From assembly GCA_964106915.2 (NCBI GenBank), contig OZ066922.1: a stretch of 64,000 nucleotides of DNA. One strand, written 5' to 3'. Positions within the stretch are counted from its first letter, which is position 1. Every line of letters begins with the position of its first letter. A program made the position numbers and the translations under genes. The DNA is from Podarcis gaigeae (lineage: Eukaryota). This document shows positions 9,876-54,813 of this stretch, in pieces. The notes below the pieces were generated by a model. That model ran no database searches. It had not been told where the DNA came from and saw only the letters and a list, made by a program, of their open reading frames with translations.

Positions 9876-10260
9876 CCTTCCCGTCACCCCATCATACAAC
9901 TACCACTTAATCTATCTAGCATACTATGTATTTTCATTTTCTTTTATTAATTTTCATCAATATTATATTCTCTTATGATTTTCACACCACAGAAATCATA
10001 CAAACCCTGCCACTGACGTCATGTTATTACAGTAATCCTTAAGGTATTTTTCACACATGTCCCATTTCCTAATAAATGTTTGATCAGTAAGCCGTCTCAG
10101 TTTTTCTGTAATTTTTGCCAATTTGGCATATTCCAGCAATTTACCTTGCCACTCCAGCTTTGTTAGGGTTCTCTCTCCTTTCCAATTTGTGGCGATTAAT
10201 ATTCTTGCAGCTACCATAGCATACAATAATATTTCTCTCACACTTTTAGGCCTAGTTCTT
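9876..10260 (-). mobile_element. L1-clade LINE 3' fragment (ORF2 C-terminus and 3'UTR)
   Basis: ORF 9996-10322(-) contains LLYAMVAARILIATNWK...KLEWQGKLLEYAKLAK...FIRKWD, typical of the non-mammalian L1 ORF2 C-terminus. It is homologous to the fragment at 35584-35856. Confidence 0.8.
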
Positions 10261-10327
10261 CTCATGGAGGTGGCGGACCAGTCTTTGGGCTTCACCATTA
10301 CAGACAGTAGACAGGAGCTCATGTAAA

Positions 10328-10490
10328 CAGTGGCATAGCGTGGGGGTGCAGGGGGGGGCTGGCCGCACCGGGCGCAACATCCGGGGGGGCGCTTGCACTC
10401 GCAGCTCTCTGCCCCTACTAAAATCCACGGGTTAGGGTGCGCAAATTACTTGCCTTGCCCCGGGTGCTGACAACCCACGCTATGCCACTG
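10328..10490. mobile_element. hAT-superfamily MITE, 163 bp, apparently young
   Basis: Perfect 17-bp TIRs (CAGTGGCATAGCGTGGG / CCCACGCTATGCCACTG), perfect 8-bp TSD CATGTAAA, CpG-rich interior. Confidence 0.95.
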
Positions 10491-12250: not shown

Positions 12251-12322
12251 CAGTGGAACCTTGACTGTCGCACACTTAGAAAGTTGAACGTTTCGGGTTT
12301 CGAACGCCGACAACCTGGAAGT
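12251..12322. mobile_element. Tigger-like MITE left-end fragment
   Basis: TA|CAGTGGAACCTTGA...GAACGTTTCGGGTTTCGAACGCC, similar to the element at 13635. Confidence 0.65.
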
Positions 12323-12356
12323 GGAAGGGACACAGGTGGCGCTGTGGGTAAAACCT

Positions 12357-12602
12357 CAATAGGACAATAGGATCCAGAAGCAGCAGTCTGATTGGTCCGC
12401 AGGAGCCACCCAATCCAGCTCCAGGTGGAAGTGAATCCGCAACCTGATTGGCCTACAGGAGAATCCCGGAATTAGCCAATCATGTGGGGCCCATTGTGTA
12501 AATAATGTATATAAAGCAGACACTTTGGGGGAACTGGCATTCCTCAAAACTATGAGCTGAATAAAGAGCATGAAACCCACACTCGACTCAGAGTATATTT
12601 CA
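12357..12602 (+). mobile_element. 5'-truncated solo-LTR-like fragment
   Basis: Repeated CCAAT/ATTGG boxes, TATATAAA (about 12508), AATAAA (about 12560) and an end in TATATTTCA. Confidence 0.6.
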
Positions 12603-13634
12603 GCCCAGCTCCTGTCTTCTGAGGCAGCCACCTCACTCTTCCTAATGGTAGGTTTAGCCATGCCATCTACATTGAAGCTATAGCTGGTGATGGTTGGTAC
12701 CCATTGGGATTGATGGGTCAGAAAGCATAGAAACCAACAGTAGGCGGGGGCCAGAGCCAATGACTGGCAGATCCAACATATTCTAGTTTTGTCACTATCC
12801 TCCTCCTCATTGAGTTCTGCACAGGGCACACTGGCACTAAGGAGGAGGCAGCAGCTGATAGCCATACTGGACTGGTTGGGACAGTGGGGGATGCCTGAGG
12901 GCAGATTGGGGTTGGTGTGGCAGCCCCTGTTTGCCATAACGGACCCCCCTCCACCGGTTGCAACACATACATCATTAATGCATCATTTATGTCTATCCTC
13001 GAATCCGACACAGCCAGCATGCTTGCAAATAAAGGGAGTTTCATGAACAAATAGGAACTTAACCAAACTGTGCATGCAAGTACTTTATAAGCCATTTGTC
13101 TGTATCGTTCTGCTGTGTGGCGCACAGAGTCCTTTATCATACTTCTGCACCTGGTTAGAATTCTGAGGAAGAAGGGAAATGATAACATTTCTCCTTCACC
13201 CCTTGGCAGCATGATGCAGTGGTGCAAGCTGCCTCAAGGCTGCAAAATCCCATCCAGTAGTCAAGACAACAGTTCACCGGTCAGATCTTTGGTGATCTTG
13301 CCCATCAGCTTCTCCAAGCCCTTTAGAAAAACAGAAATATTCTGAATGCATTTATTTATGCTATGAACACACATTTTTTTGGCTCTTACGTAGTGGTTTT
13401 ATACAAGGGTTATTGATTTTTAACTGTAATAAATATGTTGTAGAAACTCTCCACCTGAAAGGCAATTAAGATGATGCTATCTGAATGTTCAATGCAAACA
13501 GCTTTATTGATTCTTAGAAATTTTTTTTAATCCACTTCACATTCTTGTCCAAAGTGCCAAGGGGCAGATGCCTGCTTCCTCTTACCTTGTCAGAGGGCCA
13601 AACTGCGTGTGAGAGTATTTTGCGTTTTTCTGTA

Positions 13635-13872: not shown

Positions 13873-14845
13873 TATTGCAGTTTCTTCCCAATACAAATAG
13901 CAGCTGGGGGTTTATACAGGACCACCAAAGGGTGAGAATCCCGACAATTATCAGCCCCAATCCCACAGCACCCCACAGCAGCAGACATTGCTTGCATTTA
14001 AAAATAATTTTAAAAACTTGCATGTTCAATGCAAAGACCCATTTAAAGTCACCTCCAAATTGGCCTTAAAGTTGATACCAAAATATATAAAACACCTCAG
14101 ACTGTCAATATTTTGATTCGTCACCAAAAAATAATGAGACAGCTACTTCAGAGAGCATTTTCAAGTCAACCCTGGCTGATGTTTCGATACCTTTAAAGAT
14201 CATGGGGAAGAGGTTTTGTTGTTGTTTTCTTGACAGATAATGTGCTTGTCCTTTCAGGGCCTTTTTGTTTGTGTTTGAAGAGACTTTGAGAAGCACCCTA
14301 GAGTTTTGATCATTACTCATTTGCCTAGACACTTCATAGCAGTGTCAGTTTTCTTTGATGGCCAAGAAGCAAAGGATAGCAACTAGGAATGTTGTATGCG
14401 AGTTACGGCTGCAGAAAATGTTCAGCTAAAGCATATCGACTAACACATCTCTCAGAAATCCCACCAGTTTGGTTAATGTATCTCCTAGGATACATTGCTC
14501 CTAGGAGTAACCTTGCTTGCCTCCTAACAATAAATAGTAATGCGATTTTTGAATTTTAGAAGTTTGTTCATTTATAATGTAATTATTTCAAGAATATAAG
14601 GTTCCGTAGAAAAAAAGGACAGCTTGCTCTGCCTTTTCTTTTCATTGCTTGGTCAGCTTCATACATTAAGGTGGCAATGTTATTGTCACTGAGAAGTCTT
14701 ACATGTTCAGGGGAATAATCTGACCATGCATGTTGTAACATATGTAACCGACTTCCCATTGGTGATAAGTTGGAACTTGAACACTGTGGCTGAACTGAAA
14801 GGTTAACTGAAAACTATGAGCAATCCAGTCTTGGGAAACAGATTA

Positions 14846-15095
14846 CCGTATTTTTCACTCTATAAGACACACCAGACCACAAGACGCACCTAGTTTTTGG
14901 AGGAGGAAAACAAGAAAAAAAATATTCTGAATCTCAGAAGCCAGAACAGCAAGAGGGGTCGCTGCACAGTGAAAGCAGCAATCCCTCTTGCTGTTCTGGC
15001 TTCTGGGATAGCTGCATTCGCTCCACAAGACGCACACACATTTCCCCTTACCTTTTAGGGGGGGAAAAGTGAGTCTTACAGAGCAAAAAATATGG
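14846..15095. mobile_element. Tc1/mariner-superfamily MITE (CCGTATTTTT TIR) with an internal palindrome
   Basis: TA|CCGTATTTTTCACTCTATAAGAC...GTCTTACAGAGCAAAAAATATGG|TA. Related elements start at 27789 and 54035. Confidence 0.88.
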
Positions 15096-26400: not shown

Positions 26401-26492
26401 ATGTCAGCATAAGTGGCCTTAAATTAAGGCTTAAAGTGGGGGGGGGGAATCCATGGAGGATGGTTCTAGCAATGGCTTTTAGTGGTAACTAA

Positions 26493-26848
26493 GGGACGCG
26501 GGTGGTGCTGTGGGTTTAACCACAGAGCCTAGGGCTTGCCAATCAGAAGGCCGGCGGTTCGAATCCCCGTGACGGGGTGAGGTCCCATTGCTCGGTCCCT
26601 GCTCCTGCCAACCTAGCAGTTCAAAAGCACGTCAAAGTGCAAGTAGATAAATAGGTACCACTCCGTCAGGAAGTAAACGGCGTTTCCGTGCACTGCTCTG
26701 GTTCACCAGAAGCAGCTTAGTCATGCTGGCCACGTGACCCGGAAGCTGTACGCCGGCTCCCTCGGCCAGTAAAGCGAGATGAGCGCCGCAACCCCAGAGT
26801 CAGTCACGACTGGAGCTAATGGTCAGGGGTCCCTTTACATTTACCTTT
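26493..26848 (+). mobile_element. Sauria SINE, full length
   Basis: GGGACGCGGGTGG head, B box GGTTCGAATCCC, body GTGCAAGTAGATAAATAGGTACC and an (ACCTTT)n tail. Confidence 0.93.
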
Positions 26849-27072
26849 AAGGAAGAAGCTGTCATCATATATAAGCAATTTGTCTTTGAGTTCCAGGTGT
26901 TCAGAATAAGCATAGGAATAATGTCTGTATTCATCTTGCTCTGTTTCTGAGCTTCTTTATGCCACTTGGCTACTTACTACATAGCAAGGTAAGATGGTTG
27001 CATCATGGCAATTCTTATTTCTGTAGGCTGCCACAAAACATGAAATGAATCAGAGGTGTTTACTATCTAGGG

Positions 27073-27788: not shown

Positions 27789-28525
27789 CCGTATTTTTTG
27801 CTCCACAACACACACTTTTTTCCTCCTAAAAAGTAAGGGGAAATGTCTGTGCGTCTTATGAAGCGAATGCTGCGTGGAGGAGGAACGGACGGGAGCCATG
27901 GCTCCCATCCTTCCCTCCTCTCTGGCTCGCTTCAAAGCAGCAAAGCAGGACAGGAGCTCCTTACACGGGTGTAAAGCAAGCACAGCAGGAGCTGTGTAAT
28001 CCCTCCACCTTTCTTTGCAGAAGTGTGAAATTTGAAGGGTGGCTGTGGTTTGGTCCTTGTGTTGTGTACGAAGGTGTGACTTAGGTAGGTTTGACTTTAA
28101 ATGGGAATTGAATCAGATTTCTCCCACATTCTTCCCTCATATGAAAGCCCCCAGAGCTCTCTGCAATGAACAGAAAGGAAGAAAGTCCCACTTCTTTTGG
28201 CTTTATTCAAATAATTGTGTAGGGCCAAACCATACAGTCCTTAGATCTAAGGGTCTCAATGTGGGAAGCTCATATATTTCCATTGCTTGCCCCCTTACTA
28301 GGGGATAAAGTCTCTCTTCATTTGTTAACGACAGTGATGATGGTTCTTAATGCCACTGTTGACTGCTGTTCACTTTACATGGTTGAAATATTATTCTGAT
28401 ATACCGGCAGTTTATTAAATAGTTTAGTACAACATTTGATTCAGAATATTTATTTTCTTGTCTTCCTCCTTTAAAAACTAGGTGCATCTTATGGTCAGGT
28501 GTGTCTTATAGAGTGAAAAATATGA
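27789..28525. mobile_element. Tc1/mariner-superfamily non-autonomous element (CCGTATTTTT TIR), longer version
   Basis: Both ends are the reverse complement of the ends of the element at 14846-15095. Confidence 0.82.
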
Positions 28526-28529
28526 TAAT

Positions 28530-29660
28530 AAAGAAACAATAAAGGCAGTTCTTGGGATTAAATTGGCCACAACTTTATTGAGTGCAGTTGTAATATGCTC
28601 TTGGCTTAGGTGCATATTTTGTATTAACCAGTCCAATTTGTTGGCTGATTATTCCATCATGGCTTAAGGACCACCCCATGACACACATCAAATGGAGGAG
28701 TCCCTCCAGGTTGTCATTTTGTAGAGGGTCTGAGGCCTGTCAGCCCACAACTGGATATACGGACAGAGGCTGTTAGGATATTCCATTCCACTTTAAGTAC
28801 AGGCATGACTGTTGTATGTCACATGCCTATTTACACTCCATCACAGATTTCTGGGAACTTCCATTTGTGTATAGCTATTGCTTATGCTGCTTGCTTGGAC
28901 ACAGAGGAGAGAAGACATGTTTTCATCTTATCCTGATGTATGCTGAATAAACTGCTTGTAAATATGCTCATCACAGCCTCTCCCTGCCACTTCTGTTGTG
29001 CAGCGTTATTTACTCTGCTGAGTGTGCGTGCTCAGCTTCTGAAGGCTTTGAAAACTAGAGTCGTAGTTTCATGCTGATCCAAGGACTGGAAATCGCCCGG
29101 GACACTGGCCGGTGGGCTGGGGCCACCTGGGGACCTGTCAAATGCCCTTGATTTCTTGGCTGCATCCCAACAGAGGCATCCCCACCAGACCCCTTTACTA
29201 GGGGGTCTATTTCAAAAAGTGAAAATTTGGACGCAATGCAATTCAGTGCCTTATCTGCCAACCCATTACTATGAGGCAGGCAAAAGCCCCAGACAGGTCC
29301 AATTAGTCTGCAAACAAATTCTTCCCTGGCCCCAACTATGGTGACCAAATAACTCCACAGCAAGGCCAAAACATGCCCTGCCCACTCACCCTCGGGTGTA
29401 GTGTCATAAAGGGAGGGAGGGTGGGAAATCCAATGCCAACCTCCACTGCTGGGTGCCAGCAGAGTCAGAATTTACGAGCAATTGGAGGACCTGACTGAAG
29501 CCAGGTTAGAGCTGGTCTAGAACCAGGGTGCCACCACTCCCTGCCTGCCAGCTCAAATTTAAAATCGGCAGGGAGAGTCCTGACCACCCCCCACCCCCCC
29601 AGCAGCCAATGGAGGAGCTGATTTCATCTGTTGGCTGTGCAGGAAGCCAATGGATGCTCC
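28530..29660 (-). mobile_element. Diverged copy of the structured non-coding element (family of 43902-44690), interrupted by a solo LTR
   Basis: Shares TGGCCACAACTTTATTGA, TTGGCTTAGG, GAGGCAGGCAAAA, CCAATTAG and AAAGGGAGGGAGGGTGGGAAA blocks with 43902-44690, in the same order. The right boundary is approximate. Confidence 0.75.
28771..29172 (+). mobile_element. Solo LTR, 402 bp
   Basis: TG...CA termini with short inverted ends (TGTTAGGAT / ATCCCAACA), perfect 5-bp TSD GAGGC, AATAAA at about 28946. Confidence 0.88.
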
Positions 29661-31384
29661 CAAACCTTTGGAGGCTGGGCTGGGCTGCAGTGGTCATTTC
29701 CAGTTAATGCCGGTAAGCAGTCCTTTTCTATGAAAATGGAGAATTGGAAGAAACAAGGGGGTGGGGATGGAAAGTACCCCCCCCCCCATTTTTGAAAATA
29801 TTTTTTCTTCTGCTTTTTTGGAGGGGTGCCCAAATGCCCCACCATCCAATCTGTAAATGGGCTTGCGGGCATATTCGGTTCAGCCCTGCTTTGAGTTACA
29901 AATGTGAAAGTACAGGTCTCATACTAAATATTTTACATGGATGTAGAGGAGGGGACAGATCAGCTCATGAAGGATGCAGGAAATCATTTGTAAAGTGGTG
30001 TATTTGGGGTGACGTTTGAAACCCACTGACATGTCCTTGGTGAACATCTTACATTTGTTTAAAGCACAAATAGGAAAACCTATTTTCCAACCAATATTTA
30101 TTTTGAGAAAGTGACATTTTGACTTTGCTCTGATGTTTGTTGCTGGCGGTGGTTAGACCCGCACATAGCATGTGAGACTTGGATCATTCTTGAGGCAGAA
30201 TCCTTCAAGGTTTTCTTGAATCAGGAAAAGCAGGACATTGCCAGTTGTATCTTGTAGAATAAATTATTTCCATATTAAATTATGTCTCTGCAAGTTTGAG
30301 CGGCTCATAGATTTAATTTAAGAATAATAATTTTCCAGAGCCTAGAATTTGTAGATTGTGCGTTTTATTTCCATAGCCTCACAGCTTTTACCTGTTAAAT
30401 TATTTGGATCCTGAAGTACTTTCAAGAGGAAATAAAAGCCCAGATAATTTCGCCTGCTGCAATCCACTCTTTAAATCTTTTTAAAGCTGTTAAGTGGGTG
30501 ATTCACCTGAGAGGAGAACATACCATGCTAAAGTGATTGGCTGCCCTAGGCATGCAGAAAGGGAATACAAATGAAATCTTCATGTGGTTGTCATGACTTG
30601 TTCCACTTAAAAGGGTTTCACAAGCTTTGTGCTGCTGCTTCCATACTTCATAAATGTAGGCAATTTGAAATGAAAGTCTATACACTGTACTGTCTGCAGC
30701 ATTTTAATCATAAATTGTTATAGCTGTAGAGAGTGTGGACAGCGGTTTTTCAAGGATGCAGCTTTTGTTATCTCCCAACATCCTGAAATATATGTGAGAC
30801 TGTAGAACTTGTGGCTTTGCTATCAGCCCAAATATTAACCAGTTGTTCTAGTATAGCAGTAATCCAGATTAATCTGCTTTATTCCTACACTGGCTGGCAA
30901 AACATTAAAAAAAAACCTACCCTCCCAACAGAGATTCAGTCCTTATTGGCCCCCGCTGCACCTGTTGTTTGCATTCTAAAGAAACATTTACATAATGGGT
31001 GCTGACACATCTAGTTTGCCCCCCTATCCCTTTGAATTTGAGCAAAATAATTAGTTGAAATCCATCCAGATAAATCCAGCGATGCTCCCGACATTTGGGA
31101 CCCCCTCTCTGGGTCTAGACATTGTTCTGGAGATTTCAGATCCGGGACTCTGGTAGTGAAAACAATACCCCTTTCTCTTTGTTTCCAGAACAGCAGTTTG
31201 CCAGAACAGCAGTTGAGTCTTCTCTCCACTGGGTTTCAGTAATATCTCTGTGCATGGCTAGAGGGTGGTGGGTATGGTTGCTGCTACCAATTGAGCAGTG
31301 GTCAGGCATTACACACATCCAATCAGTTCTGATCTGATAATATAAAACTTCTTGACTGTGTCCAGTCTGAGCAAGTAATTACTT

Positions 31385-31680: not shown

Positions 31681-31772
31681 AGGTACAGCTTTCAGATAGC
31701 ATATTACTGCCGACTGGCTTAATTTGCTAGCTGCTCAGCTGCTCAGCTCAATACCTGCCTGGTTGGTATCTA

Positions 31773-32123
31773 AAGGTAAAGGTAAAGGGACCCCTGACCA
31801 TTAGGTCCAGTCGTGGCCAACTCTGGGGTTGCGGCTCTCATCTTGCTTTATTGGCCGAGGGAGCCGGTGTACAGCTTCCTGGTCATGTGGCCAGCATGAC
31901 TAAGCCGCTTCTGGTGAACCAGAGCAGCAGCACACGGAAACACTGTTTACCTTCCCGCCGGAGTGGTACCTATTTATCTACTTGCACTTTGACGTGCTTT
32001 CGAACTGCTGGGTTGGCAGGAGCAGGGACCGAGCAATGGGAGCTCACCCCGTCATGGGGTTTCAAACCGCTGACCTTCTGATCAGCAAGTGCTAGGCTCT
32101 GTGGTTTAACCAACCTGCGTCCC
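31773..32123 (-). mobile_element. Sauria SINE, full length
   Basis: Runs from an (AAAGGT)n tail to the GCGTCCC head; perfect 12-bp TSD GGTTGGTATCTA. Confidence 0.95.
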
Positions 32124-35414: not shown

Positions 35415-35852
35415 ACTGTTTTACAATTTTGAATACTCATTTAAACATTAAAATATCAATGACTTCCCTTCCTCTCTTTCCATTGTTAATTTTGCAAACC
35501 ATAAATCCCTGCATATTTTACATAAACTAAACCATTCAATATTCTATTATTACATCCATCAAAACTTATTTACACTGTTGAATTTATGTTAATGCTGCCA
35601 GTGTTTTCAAGTGTATACAATTACCCCCCATATATTCAGTAAACATTTTCCAATCTTCTCTAAACATATGTTCTTTTTCTCTTAATCTATATGCTAAGTC
35701 TGCAAGCTGTGCATATTCCATCAGTTTAAGTTGCCACTCTTCTTTCTTTGGGACCTCACTCATTTTCCATTTTGGGGCTAACAAAACATGGGCTGTAGTA
35801 GTGGCATACATAAATAACATGTTTTTATACCTGGGAATTTCCATCTGAATTA
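35415..35852 (-). mobile_element. L1-clade LINE 3' fragment
   Basis: ORF 35584-35856(-) reads FMYATTTAHVLLAPKWK..EVPKKEEWQLKLMEYAQLA...FREDWKMFTEY and aligns with the peptide at 9996-10322. Confidence 0.82.
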
Positions 35853-35854
35853 TC

Positions 35855-36160
35855 AATAATAATAATAATAATAATAATAATTATACCCCACCCAACTTGC
35901 TGGGCCTCCCCAGCCACTCTGGGTGGCTTTAAACAGGATATTAAAAATATGATAAAACATCAAACATTAAAAACATCCCTAAACAGGGCTGCCTTCAGCT
36001 GTCTTCTAAAAGTCAGATAGTTGCTTATTTCCTTGACATCTGATGGGAGGGTGTTCCACAGGGCAGGCACCACTACCGAGAAGGCCCACTGCCTGGTTCC
36101 CTGTGATCTCACTTCTCACAGTTAGGGAACCACCAGAAGGCCCTTGGAACCGGACATCAG
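35855..36160 (-). mobile_element. L2 LINE 3' fragment with (AAT)n tail
   Basis: Reverse complement of the 18165 family, extending into ORF2: GTTCCACAGGGCAGGCACCACTACCGAGAAGGCCC reads RAFSVVVPALWN on the minus strand. Confidence 0.85.
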
Positions 36161-38707: not shown

Positions 38708-39070
38708 GGGACGCAGGTGGCGCTGTGGGTTAAAGCCTCAGCGCCTAGGACTTGCCGATCGAAAGGTCGGCGGTTCGAATCCCTGCGGCGGGGTGCGCTC
38801 CAGTCGTTCGGTTCCAGCGCCTGCCAACCTAGCAGTTCGAAAGCACCCCCGGGTGCAAGTAGATAAATAGGGACCGCTTACCAGCAGGAAGGTAAACGGC
38901 GTTTCCGTGTGCGGCTCTGGCTCGCCAGAGCAGCGATGTCACACTGGCCACGTGACCCGGAAGTGTCTCCGGACAGCGCTGGCCCCTGGCCTCTTGAGTG
39001 AGATGGGCGCACAACCCCAGAGTCTGGCAAGACTGGCCCGTATGGGCAGGGGTACCTTTACCTTTACCTT
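38708..39070 (+). mobile_element. Sauria SINE, full length, distinct subfamily
   Basis: Head GGGACGCAGGTGGCGCTG, (ACCTTT)n tail, 12-bp TSD TACTTTATGTGT, and diagnostic differences from the other copies. Confidence 0.95.
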
Positions 39071-39198
39071 TACTTTATGTGTGGTCCAGTTCACATAGAC
39101 ACACCAAGCTGAATGAATCCTTCCTGCACTGGTGTTATCTGGTGTTGTTACAATTGCAACGTAAAATATCTGAGGTGTTATGGGTCCAGTCAGGTATA

Positions 39199-42059: not shown

Positions 42060-42147
42060 GATAGCCCTCTGGTCTTACAGTCTGACAGGAATGTAACAGT
42101 GAATGCAAGAAACCACATGGGACAGTTAACGGGACAGCTGACTGTAG
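42060..42147 (+). CDS. SGCZ: Internal coding exon (88 nt, phase 0 to phase 1) of zeta-sarcoglycan, extracellular domain
   Basis: A polypyrimidine tract ends in TTTCCCAG (AG at 42058-42059). The exon reads DSPLVLQSDRNVTVNARNHMGQLTGQLTV-G and is followed by the donor GTAAGT at 42148. The peptide matches my recollection of vertebrate SGCZ (DSPLVLQSDRNVTVNARNHMGQLTGQLTIG) and is clearly different from the SGCG and SGCD paralogous segments. It contains the conserved N-V-T glycosylation sequon. Confidence 0.95.
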
Positions 42148-44260
42148 GTAAGTCTTATTCTCTAATGAAGCTTTTGTGTATCATGTTAAGATTGCAGACA
42201 CCATTTCTTTTAAATATAGTGTGTAGCAGGAAGGATGCAGGAAAGGATTAACCAAGTTCAGTGCACTCTAAATGTCCTTAGCTGCAATTTTAGCAGAATT
42301 TAGCTCTGCAATGGTAATTCAATAAAAAAAGATAATCTATCCCAACAAATAATTGATCGGATAAAATGAGGATTAACCCTATTAGAAAATCTTATTGCAC
42401 TTCAACCTTTTCACAGGCAGATTAATCTAGAATTCTTCTAGCCTTTTAGTAAAGCGAGTTATAATTTTCATGCCACAGCAATGGTACAAAATGTGTGGGA
42501 ATTATTTGCTAATATCAGAGGATTTTCTTTTATGATTATGAACACAAAACTCACAGCCTCTTCAAGAAAGAGGGAAAACATTCTGAACACAGTCTCAGTA
42601 AGATACTGGGGAGGATAGGAAGCCTTTGGACTGTATTTCCACATATCGTGGGAATGTTGTTCAGAAAAATAAGCATTTACTTTTAGACATCATGTGTTGT
42701 ATTGCAGAGTGTGCATGTAAATATATGTGGGTGTGTAACAACAGGATTTCCAAATCAGAAAGCTTGCTTCCCTCTCCAATTTTATTAATTATAGCCAAAA
42801 TAATTAGCACACTGCTGGAGATGAGAGCCACAGTGTCACTGTAACAGTGGTTCTGCCACTTTTGGGATATATTAGTGGCGGAGGAAATAACTTTGCTCTT
42901 TGAACGACAAATCATCAAGTAATCAGATATCAGGTGATGCATGTGCCTATTTTCAATCTGCCTCATTATCCTCTGTTGGTTTGGAGTGCTCTTTGTTCTT
43001 CTTCATTTATAGTTACGTTTTATAATGCTGAGTTAGTATGGAACTTTAACAGGTCTCCCCCCCCCAAAAAAAAGAGATACAGATTTTTTTTAGTAAGAAG
43101 AATCTTTCAATTCTGCAGAAAAACACATAGAAAACCTTTACTGCATATTTAAATAATGACGTCCCTTGTGAGCATATGCCATGCAGTATGTTAGGTTTTT
43201 ATTAATGTTCAGGGAGAATTTCTATGGTTCAGAATGATTTTTATCATAAATCATCCTCTGATGTCAGGGTACTGTTCTTCTTTACAATTCTGTCATTCCC
43301 AGTTGTCCCAATTCAGTTGCTATCATTGCAGTGGCTTTATTGTAATGCCATCTCAAATATTTTTTAGTGGTCACTTTACATATTAAAAGGATTGCAATAT
43401 TTAGTTGATTAATCTGTTAGATTAATCAACTAAAATCTCCTAAGAGGCAATGCATTTCTGTGTGTTTCAAATAATGTCAACTATTTTAATACAAGTACTT
43501 GTAAAAAAAACCCTTTGTATTCATCACCTTACAAGCAAAGACCCCTTTCCCCCTGTTCTTCAGAATTGTTATTTTGTTCATATGGAAACACCTGCAGATT
43601 TAATGGATGAGTTAACTGATTGAAACTTATATCAACTAGCATTTCTAAAGCAGCAAATTTAATTGAGACCACAAGATCCGTCACTAGACTGATGGTTTTT
43701 GACTAGTGAGTTTTGAAAATTACAACAAATAATCATGTTCTATAAGCAATCTCCTAAATCCAAAAACCTTAGCCAGTTAATGAGCAGAGAAGACACTGCC
43801 CACTTTTGAAAGGCAACACAAGTAAACATCTTAGTTTCTCTGATCATCTCTGTTAGCTTTTGACTCCTGCTGCCAGACATAAGAGGTCCAGGGGAGGGTG
43901 TTTGCGTGGCTATTCCCTCCCCTCCCACAAGTGTGATAAATAAAGACACCGGACACAAGAGTTTAGAGTTAATGGGCGAAAATGGCCACAACTTTATTGA
44001 TTACAGGTATGAGAGGTATTGGCTTAGGCATTGGCCCCTAACCGACTATCCGGTCTAACCGGGAAGGGTTAAACACCAACAGGGGGAGCTACCCGAGATG
44101 CGTATCCCTAGGCGCTCCCCGAGGGGTTACCGCTCGGGGGCGCGCTTTAGGCCCTAGCCTCCGTAGGTTTCGGACGAGGCGACGCCCCTCGGAGTCCTTT
44201 AACGAACTACCCTTCAAGCATTGGGGGAGGTGATGGCGCTCCTCCCCCCCCCCCGTCCTC

Positions 44261-44275
44261 ATTTGCATAACAATA
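44261..44275. promoter_or_regulatory. OCT4-SOX2 composite motif match
   Basis: ATTTGCATAACAATA versus the canonical ATTTGCATAACAATG (14/15). This is a motif match only; function is untested. Confidence 0.55.
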
Positions 44276-44509
44276 CCCCGGCCAATGCCTACCGCCAAAA
44301 CCAAGGGAGTTGTGACGATTTGCTACGAGGTAGGCAAAAAAACCAAGTGGCTTCCACATGCCAATTAGCCAAATGGAAAAACTCCTACCAGGCCCCTTGC
44401 GGCGACCAGCCGAAGCCCATAGCAAGTCGATGGCGAAGCCTAAAGGGCGGGTGGGCGGGAAACCAGGATCGCTGCAAGGGGAGAAAAGGGGCGAGCCGAG
44501 GGCTGCCCC

Positions 44510-44581
44510 AACCTTAAGTGGCCTATTGAAGGCCCGCCCCCGCCGCCAGCCGATTGGCTGGTGCCGCGGGGGGATGCAAAT
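44510..44581 (-). promoter_or_regulatory. Putative Pol II promoter of the element (octamer, CCAAT box, GC box, TATA-like)
   Basis: On the minus strand, in order: ATTTGCAT (44581-44574), CAGCCAATCGG, GGGGGCGGG, then CACTTAAGG. Confidence 0.45.
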
Positions 44582-45692
44582 TGAGGGAATCCCCGCTTCC
44601 CGCGAGGCTGGGGCTAGCCTCGCGGGAGTGTGGGGCGGGATCGGGAGCCCGCAACCCCCCCTCCTCATGAAATCGGTAGTGGCATTATAAACCTCTTTTC
44701 CTTCATGGCCACTCAAGAAAATGACTTCAGACCCTACCTTGAAAAACTGCCAGTATACTATGGGACTGTAGCAAGACCTTAATCCTACTCTCTTGATTAT
44801 CCCTTTCTTTTCCAATGGGGTTTTTTTTATTGGGGGGGGGGTGTGAGTCTCACTGTTCATTATCTTGTTTTCTGCAAAAAGCCTTTTTGAGTACATATAA
44901 TGTACATATAATATTCATTTAAGATTAAGGGGGAAAGGGCTTCTCGGATAGGAGGTCTGGAGCCTGCTACCTCTCTCTTTTTTAGAAATGAATTGCTGAG
45001 CTTTCCCCCCCTTCATCTGATGAAGGGATTGTTGTTTTGTTCATATAGTTATTCTACCTGAGGCATGGCAGTGTAATATGCAAAGACACAGCATCTGTGA
45101 TGATTGCCCTAAACGGTTGTGTCAAAGGCAGCCAGGCATGGTGGCAGATACAAATGGATGCAAATTAAGCCAGCACCTTTCCTAGCCATTTTGCACTTGC
45201 TGCTTCTGGTAAATACATTATTTAAACATTTAGCTCTAGCGGTATTTAAAGTTAGGTTTCTTCTGACACTCAATTGAATGCAATATAGGGAAGCAATCTG
45301 AAACTCAGATTGAAGGAATGGCAATTTGTTGAGTTTTACCCTGCAAGTGTGACTAAATAGGTGTGAGAGCAGCGTCCAGTTGGCTTGACAATACAGTGTT
45401 TGCACTTAATCCTCTAAATAGTTCAGATGCTTTAAAGCAACACATGTTCTCTTGTTAGTCATTACTGCAAACACCTGTGAACTATTTAATTAGCCATCGC
45501 AGTTGGTGCAGATTGTCGGAGGAGTCTACTGATTAAAATGTATCATAGTTACGTTCCATTTCACTTCTCTTGCTTTCTAATTCTGGTGAAATCTCTGCAG
45601 GGTCAGTTTACTTTTCAATAGTATCAAGCCCTCAAAGTTACCTCAGTCATAAGTGCAATCTGGCTGTGGGGAGGTATGTAAGCATCTGTAAA

Positions 45693-46047
45693 AGTAAAGG
45701 TAAAGGGACCCCTGACCATTAGGTCCAGTCGTGGCCGACTCTGGGGTTGCGGCGCTCATCTCGCTTTATTGGCCGAGGGAGCCGGCGTAAAGCTTCCGTG
45801 TCATGTGGACAGCATGACTAAGCCACTTCTGGCGAACCAGAGCAGCGCACGGAAACGCCGTTTACCTTCCCGCTGGAGATAAAACCTATTTATCTACTTG
45901 CCCTTTGATGTGCTTTTGAACTGCTAGGTTGGCAGGAGCGGGGACTGAGCAATGGGAGCTCACCCCGTTGCGGGGATTCGAACAGCCGACCTTCTGATCG
46001 GCAAGTCCTAGGCTCTGTGGTTTAACCCACAGCGCCACCCGCATCCC
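45693..46047 (-). mobile_element. Sauria SINE, full length
   Basis: Runs from a GTAAAGGTAAAGG tail to the GCATCCC head; approximately 18-bp TSD TATGTAAGCATCTGTAAA / TATGCAGGCATCTGTAAA. Confidence 0.95.
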
Positions 46048-46916
46048 TTATGCAGGCATCTGTAAACACCCTCTAAAACTCGGTACAATCGGATTGCAGT
46101 TACAAAGGCTCATGGGATTTCTTGCTGGTTTTGCACCATTTTTGCAGTTTTCCTGCTCTTTGGGGGGCTGGACAGTTGTTGTTTTGTGCTTTTCACACTA
46201 TTTTTCAGTTTAAATCAATTTATTTAATTTTCCCCCAGCGCCACACATATACATAGTTGTGCACGACTTGAACGAAGCTAAGTGAGGAGATGCTGCACAC
46301 CTGCCATTTCCACAGCACGTTGGGAATGTTCAGAGCACTTTGTATAGCGCATGTACTAAGTCACAAGAGGCCTGCACCAAAACAGTGCAGTGAGACATAC
46401 TCTTGTTCAGTATGCGAGCCAGCCAGTCATGTATTCTGTATGGATGCCCCATTCCATTCTCTCCCCACCCTATTTTCTGTTGTCCTGCCCCACCTCCCAC
46501 CAGTCAACTTACTGTGCCCACTGAACATTTTCAGTCCTCACTGGGCTGGGTTTTTGGGGAAGGAGGTGTGTTCTTAATATATTTTTGTTCCCCCATGACT
46601 CCCACATGGATGATACTGTTTGCGATACATAAGGATCCACATTCAGAGAATAACTTCACTGATAGCATAGCAGATCTTTTCTATATCTGGTGCTTTATAT
46701 AATCTGTGGCTCTGTAGCTATCGTCAATGAATATAGATGAACTATTCTTTTCTTCTGTATAACATTTCGCCGCTAAATAAAGATAACAAAAATTGGAAGG
46801 AAAAAAATCCATAAGGACATTTTTGCAAAAATCCCTAGCTGATTTCAAAAGTCCTTTCTGGTCCAGCCTTCTTTCTCCAGTAGTAGCTAGGTGCATCTAG
46901 GAAGCTCACAAGCAGA

Positions 46917-51496: not shown

Positions 51497-52129
51497 AATT
51501 TTAAGAGGCAAAGGACCCCATGACGGTTAAGTCCAGTCAAAGGTGACTATGGGGTCGCAGCGCTTATCTCGCTTTCAGGCCAAGGGAGTCGACGTTTGTC
51601 CACAGACAGCTTTCTGGGTCATGTGGCCAGCATGACTAAACCACTTCTGGTGCAACAAGACACAGTGGCGTAAACCAGAGCGCATGGAAATGCCGTTTAC
51701 CTTCCCACCACAGTGGTACCTATTTACTGGAGAGCCAGTATGGTGTAGTGGTTAAGAGCGGTAGTCTCGTAATCTGGGAAACCGCTCCTCCACATGCAGC
51801 TGCTGGGTGACCTTGGGCCAGTCACACTTCTTTGAAGTCTCTCAGCCCCACTCACCCCACAGAGTGTTTGTTGTGGGGGAGGAAGGGAAAGGAGAATGTT
51901 AGCCGCTTTGAGACTTCTTAAAGGGAGTGAAAGGCGGGATATCAAATCCAAACTCTTCTTCTTCTTCTTCTTATCTCCTTGCACTGGTATGCTTTCAAAC
52001 TGCTAGGTTGGCAGGAGCTAGGACAGAGCAATGGGAGCTCACCCCGTCGCAGGGATTCAAACCGCCGACCTTCTGATCGGCAAGCCCAAGAGGCTCAGTG
52101 GTTTAGACCACAGCGCCAACCGCATCCAA
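51497..52129 (-). mobile_element. Sauria SINE interrupted by a Squam3-type SINE and inserted in an old L2-like fragment
   Basis: The two Sauria halves join seamlessly across 51729-51970. An 11-bp TSD GACCCACAATA lies at 51486-51496 and 52130-52140. Confidence 0.9.
51729..51970 (+). mobile_element. Squam3-type CORE-SINE (B box deleted), nested
   Basis: GGAGAGCCAGTATGGTGTAGTGGTTAAGAGC...(TTC)n, with a short TTA(T)CT duplication at the flanks. Confidence 0.9.
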
Positions 52130-52204: not shown

Positions 52205-52678
52205 CCAAAAAATTGGCACTGGCCATTCGGTTTTTGCCAATCTCATAGCAATAATCACAACTTTGTGTGGCTAAGCATTGAATAAACCATAGTCTTGGCT
52301 GGAGCAGAGGTTGTAGCCTCTGGCTCCCCACTCCCCAGTTAAGGGTGTCTCATTAAAGAGATCCACAAGGAGTGGCTTCTGTCCAATGGCCAGGTGGGGG
52401 CTAGGGCCATATCACTCCTCCAACTGGGACCCATCTGGGTGGGACCCCTATTTGTCCCACCCAGTCCCCCTCCCCTAATATGTGGTTTACCCTTAGATGC
52501 ACTCCCAGCAGTCAGGCTGGAGTGGAACAATTGGCTTCACCCAATGCCTATGCCAAACCACTCACATCTGTAACCAATAAAGTTGTAGCCTATTTGAACC
52601 TCCAAAACTGTATGCTGCTATCTTACCTGTTTCTTCATCATCTATGGAACTGCAGGGTCATGGGGCTTTGACACACAA
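52205..52678 (+). mobile_element. 3' half of another copy of the 43902-44690 family
   Basis: CCAATGCCTATGCCAAACCACTCACATCTGTAACCAATAAAGTTGTAGCC matches the reverse complement of 43984-44035. It also shares CTCATAGCAA..ATCACAACT, GGCTAGGGCC and the terminal CAC(A/G)CAA. Confidence 0.8.
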
Positions 52679-52904
52679 CCAGCTATGAAATGAATGATAC
52701 TGACTGCTCACTGCATTTTACTAGCTTCTTCTAGCTGCTTCTTTGGTTGCTGAATTTTAAGTTTATCAGCTTTTGTTTCCAAAAAAACATGTGTGTACAC
52801 ACACACATCCATTGAAGGCTTTCTGAAGCTTGATGTTGATTGCAAGACTGGAGCAGTCAAGTGATGGAATCAGAACAGAAAAGGTTAAGGAATGCTTAAT
52901 GTAA

Positions 52905-54476: not shown

Positions 54477-54566
54477 TAACTAAGGCATATGTTAAATTTA
54501 TTCAGATCTGATGTTCTGGGCCTAGCTAATAACCACGCCCCTCTCTCCTACAATTAGAGAAGCTTA

Positions 54567-54813
54567 NNNNNNNNNNNNNNNNNNNNNNNNNNNNNNNNNN
54601 NNNNNNNNNNNNNNNNNNNNNNNNNNNNNNNNNNNNNNNNNNNNNNNNNNNNNNNNNNNNNNNNNNNNNNNNNNNNNNNNNNNNNNNNNNNNNNNNNNNN
54701 NNNNNNNNNNNNNNNNNNNNNNNNNNNNNNNNNNNNNNNNNNNNNNNNNNNNNNNNNNNNNNNNNNNNNNNNNNNNNNNNNNNNNNNNNNNNNNNNNNNN
54801 NNNNNNNNNNNNN
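54567..54813. other. Assembly gap (247 N)
   Basis: Run of N. Confidence 1.

Follow-up and report, generated by a model that had tools for sequence, protein, structure and literature searches.

The 64,000-nt stretch of Podarcis gaigeae DNA analyzed here (contig OZ066922.1; hereafter, the window) carries a recently inserted 783-nt repeat at positions 43902-44686, read on the minus strand, which is probably the AB terminal unit left alone by a tyrosine-recombinase retrotransposon of the Ngaro type (a solo AB unit), and we infer its link to a coding element with reverse transcriptase (RT) and recombinase genes. The repeat is non-coding and CpG-rich (GC content of 59%, 52 CpG dinucleotides), with a CpG observed/expected ratio of 0.76 versus 0.13 and 0.18 in its flanks.

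The borders of the element were assessed using contigs from four of the 24 listed public runs, aligned to positions 43300-45300 of the window. Runs X1 and X3 represent organism A and run X4 the related organism B; the contigs of run X16, whose RNA type is a guess, belonged to diverged relatives. An empty site was found in organism B, where one 2293-nt contig of X4 (record 25) aligned with 43300-43901 and with 44685-44879, its positions 192 and 191 abutting, so that 43901 is joined to 44685 and 783 nt are extra in the window. The empty site was seen in one of the three DNA-type runs, and both runs of organism A were filled (X1 at both junctions, X3 at the right junction). The left flank differed between the window and organism B at 16 of 602 letters (2.7%); since the site is filled in organism A and empty in organism B at this level of flank difference, the insertion is younger than the split of the two organisms or is still polymorphic. 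Because TT stands at both ends, the insertion can be written as 43902-44684 or as 43904-44686, and the whole element comprises 783 nt net plus one 2-nt core. Only this core, AA on the minus strand and TT on the plus strand, is common to both ends: it lies at 44685-44686 at the 5′ end, where it may be the crossover core of the recombinase and where an X1 contig ends (at 44686), and at 43902-43903 at the 3′ end. A target site duplication (TSD) of 4–6 bp was not found at this one locus under any of the four boundary choices. Such a short core at both ends without an integrase-type TSD, as seen at this locus, is expected of a Ngaro-like insertion. The X1 contig mentioned above (record 5, 154 nt, 44533-44686) matched the window with 0 differences at a depth of 499.9 versus 50–56 in the flanks (ratio of about 9), and since it stops right after TT at about nine times the flank depth, several identical copies share the 5′ border. 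Over the whole element, depth rose from about 50 into the thousands inside, with terminal bins at 120–190 times and two inner bins at 2500–4400 times the flank value; summed contig depth does not equal copy number, and the pattern is read only as a sign that a young subfamily belongs to a far larger and old group.

A head-to-tail joint was detected in other copies. A contig of X3 passed from 44670 through 14 letters resembling the outermost A sequence to 43901, at a depth of 52.3 versus 12–14 in the flanks (about 4 times). Read on the minus strand, this contig passes from the 3′ end of the element directly into the 5′ start, with one AA core at the seam. This joint looks like the B1|A2 junction expected in an element of the A1-ORFs-B1-A2-B2 structure (ORF, open reading frame) or like a circle junction; in this variant, another base stood in place of the T of the TG at the 5′ start. 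The ends of the element are not inverted terminal repeats (ITRs), with 0 of 15 and 3 of 30 matches between them, and neither terminal 16-mer had an internal match with four or fewer mismatches on either strand, so no internal complementary region (ICR) was identified. The lack of inverted ends together with the lack of an internal copy of the ends points to the split-direct-repeat type (Ngaro, PAT, VIPER) and not to the DIRS type with ITRs and ICR; Ngaro, which differs from PAT in having no methyltransferase domain, is preferred because it is the split-repeat type reported in Xenopus. An earlier note on this DNA, made from the letters alone, had proposed a tyrosine-recombinase retroelement family; the empty site with its 2-nt core and the joint in other copies agree with this proposal, and DIRS-type ends with ITRs and an ICR were not found. 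As a separate observation, a GCCAC pentamer lies next to the core at both ends (43904-43912 and 44676-44684), and across the joint, its two occurrences are directly oriented and separated by 10 nt, whereas inverted arms are usual for tyrosine-recombinase sites.

The minus strand of the element contains a CCAAT motif at 44557, a GC box at 44539, and the TATA-like TTAAG at 44517, followed by a single AATAAA polyA signal at 43998 (43993-43998), which is kept in all three copies in the window. The promoter motifs and polyA signal given earlier were recovered; no canonical TATA box occurs on the minus strand of the element. The putative A repeat (44440-44686, minus strand) includes the 5′ hairpin region and the promoter-like motifs, and its uncertain inner border was placed at a depth step near 44439. 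The putative B repeat (minus strand) was placed from the position of the polyA signal and the terminus, with no full-length copy seen; it covers at least 43902-44036 and may reach further 5′. The corresponding sizes would be about 245 nt for the promoter region and 135 nt for the polyA region. Two octamer motifs (ATGCAAAT) in opposite orientations also occur inside the element, at 44268 (minus strand) and at 44572-44581 (plus strand).

According to the proposed scheme, a full element (A1-ORFs-B1-A2-B2) would have been copied through RNA, with its internal B1|A2 joint serving as the template for restoring the ends. Crossing of the circle junction with a target AA by the recombinase would then have left one AA at each end. 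The coding part may later have been removed either by recombination between A1 and A2 or by action of the recombinase on the left end and the internal joint, so that A, a structured middle, and B remained. In this case, the parent element would have used the promoter-like motifs, the polyA signal, and a long nested stem (described below) as cis-signals, and a lone monomer would be unable to rebuild its ends through RNA. If transcription of the monomer began at the internal promoter and stopped at the polyA signal, about 190 nt would be missing at the 5′ end and about 70 nt at the 3′ end, and with no template to rebuild them, travel as RNA would not hold for the monomer. The suggestion that the element belongs to a non-autonomous family traveling as a structured RNA was accordingly not borne out for the monomer, in which no internal copy of the ends was found. 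Most likely, it is a solo AB remnant of an already described kind and not a new mobile RNA.

It should be noted that several observations weigh against a solo AB unit of this type. The empty site is represented by one contig and defined by the borders of alignment pieces, the right-hand one of which contains 8 gap positions. The joint, listed for one of the four runs, came from a sister subfamily, its 14 bridging letters differing from the window; a tandem dimer could equally give the same joint. The borders of A and B are guesses, and no full-length copy with RT, RNase H, recombinase, or SGNH genes was seen among the window copies or in the collection scans. The middle of the element, of about 400 nt, is far longer than the 30-bp spacer given for SIRE in PMC6681497. 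In addition, the minus strand reads from TG (44684) to CA (43903) over 782 nt, and the joint and the TT at both ends also agree with the Penelope-like and Helentron alternatives, respectively, which are considered below.

The alternative that the AB unit is itself mobile is the closest to the idea of the earlier note, and we regard it as unlikely. The recombinase would act at the B1|A2 joint and at the right end to release a DNA circle of about 783 bp, which would then re-insert at AA sites, or AB-AB dimers would spread via RNA with an autonomous partner, in a SIRE-like manner. The ends and the core would be the same as in a solo remnant; PMC6681497 treats it as unsettled whether SIRE is mobile, and in the relatives of the element, the stem arms are conserved while the inner domains are replaced. 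The excess of the terminal bins (120–190 times the flank depth) over the listed joint (about 4 times) may roughly indicate more lone units than full elements, but contig depth is not copy number, and short contigs hide joints. Moreover, solo units would outnumber full elements under plain recombination too, as is established for elements with long terminal repeats (LTRs). The monomer also has no internal copy of its ends, and neither a circle nor a donor site lacking A2-B2 was seen in the contigs examined. In a minicircle version of this alternative, for which we see a slim chance, the recombinase would excise the AB unit as a 783-bp circle with an exact AA junction and re-insert it, spread would proceed without reverse transcription, and thousands of relatives would keep a nested RNA stem clamping the sequence beside the polyA signal.

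A non-autonomous Penelope-like element (PLE), in which a pseudo-LTR unit is copied via RNA in head-to-tail tandems and a hammerhead ribozyme has decayed, appears improbable. Head-to-tail insertions are described for non-autonomous PLEs in PMC8557442, in agreement with the joint in X3, and the relative of the element near 52 kb lacks the 5′ part. The segment 44265-44168 (minus strand) has a hammerhead-like look, with a near-core heptamer, a 5-bp stem closing about 75 nt, and GAAAC, but two mismatches to the canonical core; a change at 44263 in some relatives removes one of these two mismatches. The hammerhead interpretation of this segment was rejected, since no CTGANGA core occurs in the element and no Rfam family matched it at an E-value of 1; no such motif was seen in the 52-kb copy either. 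Furthermore, about nine copies share the exact 5′ border, whereas strong 5′ truncation and tails of 30–40 bp are described for PLEs.

Equally improbable is a non-autonomous Helentron (HINE/DINE-1-like) read on the plus strand and moving as single-stranded DNA via a rolling-circle transposase. The TT at both ends, the T-rich target, and the absence of a TSD are as in the HINEs described in PMC4067079, and a 10 of 12 inverted match (43908-43919 with 44583-44594) is followed by a palindrome (P of about 0.03 in the best of four tests). However, this subterminal match is imperfect and was not significant in the other three tests. HINEs are described as having 12–15-bp subterminal inverted repeats 38–60 bp and a palindrome 8–35 bp from the 3′ end, an arrangement not found in the element: here, the distance from the end is about 92 nt for the match and about 59 nt for the palindrome. 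The best-kept blocks across the relatives, including the polyA signal, are internal and not terminal. A conventional solo LTR, left by a Gypsy element or an endogenous retrovirus and accompanied by an abnormal target duplication, would explain the TG and CA ends and the U3-R-U5-like order of promoter motifs and polyA signal, but it is highly improbable, as the empty site leaves room for one extra nucleotide and not for 4–6, the sister copies share AA beyond TG, and the joint variant has another base at the T of TG. The statement of the earlier note that LTR ends and TSD are absent is correct for the 4–6-bp TSD and not strictly so for the TG and CA ends.

Returning to the putative solo AB unit, both stems reported earlier were present: the long-range inverted repeat 44015-44036/44280-44302 (20 of 23 positions matched, one gap, a perfect 12-bp core, and a blastn E-value of 2.3 on its own) and the perfect 12-bp stem 44598-44609/44616-44627. 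In the latter (44598-44627, 6-nt loop), most relatives differ at loop positions 44611, 44612, and 44615 and at arm position 44620; C in most relatives at 44620 would turn an A-U pair of the minus-strand RNA into G-U if the partner 44605, absent from the rows shown, were unchanged. A pair of perfect 12-bp inverted repeats arose in 2 of 1000 dinucleotide shuffles; such a pair was also present in 2 of the 79 remaining tiles of 785 nt across the window, and 9- and 10-bp inverted repeats showed no excess over shuffles (P = 0.57 and 0.11, respectively). The fold of the whole element had a z-score of −3.0 (0 of 20 shuffles). Among 150-nt windows, six of seven per strand were not unusually stable, the exception being the one at the 5′ (A) end; the fold of 44545-44686 had z = −3.7. 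Owing to long-range pairs, the 3′ domain 44345-43975 reached z = −2.8 (RNA) and −2.7 (DNA).

The two bins of highest depth coincide with the arms of one nested stem on the minus strand. Its 5′ arms (a and b) lie at 44280-44321, with 44305-44371 being the highest-depth bin, and its 3′ arms (b′ and a′), including the polyA-signal block, lie at 43980-44036, the second-highest bin. The arms enclose a 243-nt inner domain of short hairpins (44037-44279), which varies between subfamilies and in which related contigs show many loose ends and skips; in these contigs, the stem arms are kept and the interior is replaced. The duplex formed by the arms, which were chosen after inspection, had z = −5.2 in the young copy, with 0 of 500 shuffles as good; in the 52-kb copy, it was better than 497 of 500 shuffles, and in the copy near 28.5 kb, the arms paired no better than shuffles (z = +1.3; 465 of 500, only 35 of 500 being beaten). 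The consensuses of the loose ends suggest complementary changes on both sides of the inner end of the stem in other subfamilies (before 44291 in X1 and X3, agreement of 0.82 and 0.75; behind 44034 in X4, agreement of 0.43; 44280 G>T), which is an unphased hint only. Between the two alignable copies, all 12 of the 12 core pairs were invariant, so no covariation was found there; RNAalifold gave 13 of 65 double changes for an alignment of two sequences with 56% identity, and these changes were given no weight. The young 5′ arm paired better with the 3′ arm of the 52-kb copy (−40.4) than the own arm of that copy did (−20.4), and together with the 28.5-kb arms being no better than shuffles, this indicates no co-adaptation. 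Thus, the complementary blocks are conserved and covariation is not observed, and the selection on RNA or single-stranded DNA structure suggested in the earlier note found no confirmation. The stem covers the bases after AATAAA, while the hexamer itself is unpaired with a probability of 0.54–0.99 in the young copy and 0.37–0.64 in the 52-kb copy; masking of the polyA signal by simple occlusion was set aside because the hexamer is mostly open in the young copy and only partly covered in the 52-kb copy. The nested stem would probably have acted as a cis-signal when the parent element was packaged or reverse-transcribed.

Two old relatives were present in the window, as noted earlier. The first (52205-52678, plus strand; alignment 52211-52679) lacks the A region and extends from the middle of the element to the same 3′ end (nhmmer E-value = 1.4 × 10−17 and 1.8 × 10−18), with 240 of 425 aligned columns identical. 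The second (28530-29698, minus strand) has about 420 nt extra inside and matched the element in nhmmer blocks only (E-value = 0.005 and 0.017) and the 52-kb copy with an E-value of 1.4 × 10−5; it seems to start near 29698, where a similar AATG start occurs, and not at 29660 as first given. Its 3′ end is cut by another repeat, 28438-28529, which matches 14842-14933. CpGs were lost in both relatives (observed/expected ratio of 0.04 in the 52-kb copy and 0.16 in the 28.5-kb copy). The extra segment of the 28.5-kb relative (about 28770-29190) matched neither any other part of the window nor a Pfam family. A repeat resembling short interspersed elements was represented by five copies with 76–90% identity (26490-26849, 31771-32114, 38708-39073, 45689-46050, and 51971-52127), one of which stands directly before the 52-kb relative.

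Between A1 and B1, a Ngaro-like element is expected to carry gag-like, RT/RNase H, and tyrosine-recombinase (and SGNH hydrolase) ORFs, with an RT that groups with Ngaro. The search for coding content covered 133 ORFs, namely, 72 of the 87 ORFs of at least 25 aa overlapping the three copies (15 were left out) and 61 longer ORFs elsewhere; none of the 72 matched a transposon family or protein in Pfam at an E-value of 0.1, and the whole set of 133 likewise gave no transposon domain. Motif scans for relatives with a coding context gave no matches in viral contigs, metagenomes, or prokaryote genomes. Matches to shorter motifs (7 in metagenomes and 23 in viral contigs) were rejected as chance, as there was no homology beyond the motif or its immediate surroundings. 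Lizard repeat libraries hold Ngaro and DIRS families. No description of solo AB units in reptiles was found in the open literature, with subscription papers, Repbase, and Dfam lying outside the search, and the motifs of the element had no matches in the papers searched by motif or in the supplements of PMC3266345 and PMC11303007.

With regard to the surroundings of the element, a host sarcoglycan exon lies outside it at 42060-42147 (plus strand; Pfam PF04790, E-value = 2.7 × 10−6, below the curated cut-off; splice sites read from the sequence). The exon is 1755 nt upstream of the element, whose motifs point in the opposite direction. The description of a CpG-rich block of about 790 bp, antisense in a sarcoglycan intron and about 1.75 kb past the exon, was accurate and is refined here to 43902-44686. 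The host gene is presumably SGCZ, a label taken from the earlier note and not from a database match. Elsewhere in the window, an LTR-like block at about 12260-12602 (plus strand) has CCAAT motifs, TATAAA, AATAAA, and a TTTCA end, with no TG start with a 4–6-bp duplication within 800 nt, and a GC-richer block at about 12740-13150 (plus strand), which also has CCAAT and AATAAA motifs, resembles a degraded terminal repeat. The ORFs 9996-10445 and 35584-35880 (both minus strand) had no Pfam match at an E-value of 0.1, and we take them to resemble the C-terminal end of L1/Tx1 ORF2. An assembly gap (run of N) is located at about 54560-54810.

As a solo AB remnant, the element is ordinary in kind. 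Its usefulness lies in the head-to-tail joint and in the comparison of filled and empty sites, which together point to AA as the crossover core of a young split-direct-repeat element in a vertebrate. The nested stem offers a candidate cis-signal, in a class with hardly any tests of replication so far. Since about nine young copies are identical and the empty site occurs in another species, the family also lends itself to the question raised by SIRE, namely, whether lone AB units are dead or mobile.

Among known systems, the element is close to the solo AB repeats of Ngaro elements in Cafeteria burkhardae (PMC8547959): these are also isolated non-coding units of A followed by B with an A1-ORFs-B1A2B2 parent, which is presumed here, and the joint was found here in other copies, whereas the present host is a vertebrate, the middle is long and structured, and parent ORFs were not seen. 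SIRE of Trypanosoma cruzi, the A2-B2 region of VIPER (PMC6681497), is likewise a short interspersed non-coding unit of A, spacer, and B from a split-direct-repeat recombinase retroelement; it is about 430 bp long with its short spacer, whereas the element described here is 783 nt long with a folded middle and belongs to another superfamily and its host to another kingdom. DIRS-1-like elements (PMC7192593) share with it a short core flanking both ends and the lack of an integrase-type TSD, but they have ITRs, an ICR, and a 3-nt core, in contrast to the 2-nt core without ITRs or ICR observed here. Unlike the putative solo unit, the Ngaro-like DIRS-53_XT of Xenopus (10.1101/2021.08.05.455354) is a full coding vertebrate split-direct-repeat element; compared by size and not by sequence, and thus only suggestively, its A (236 bp) and B (152 bp) repeats are close to those proposed for the solo AB unit in the window.

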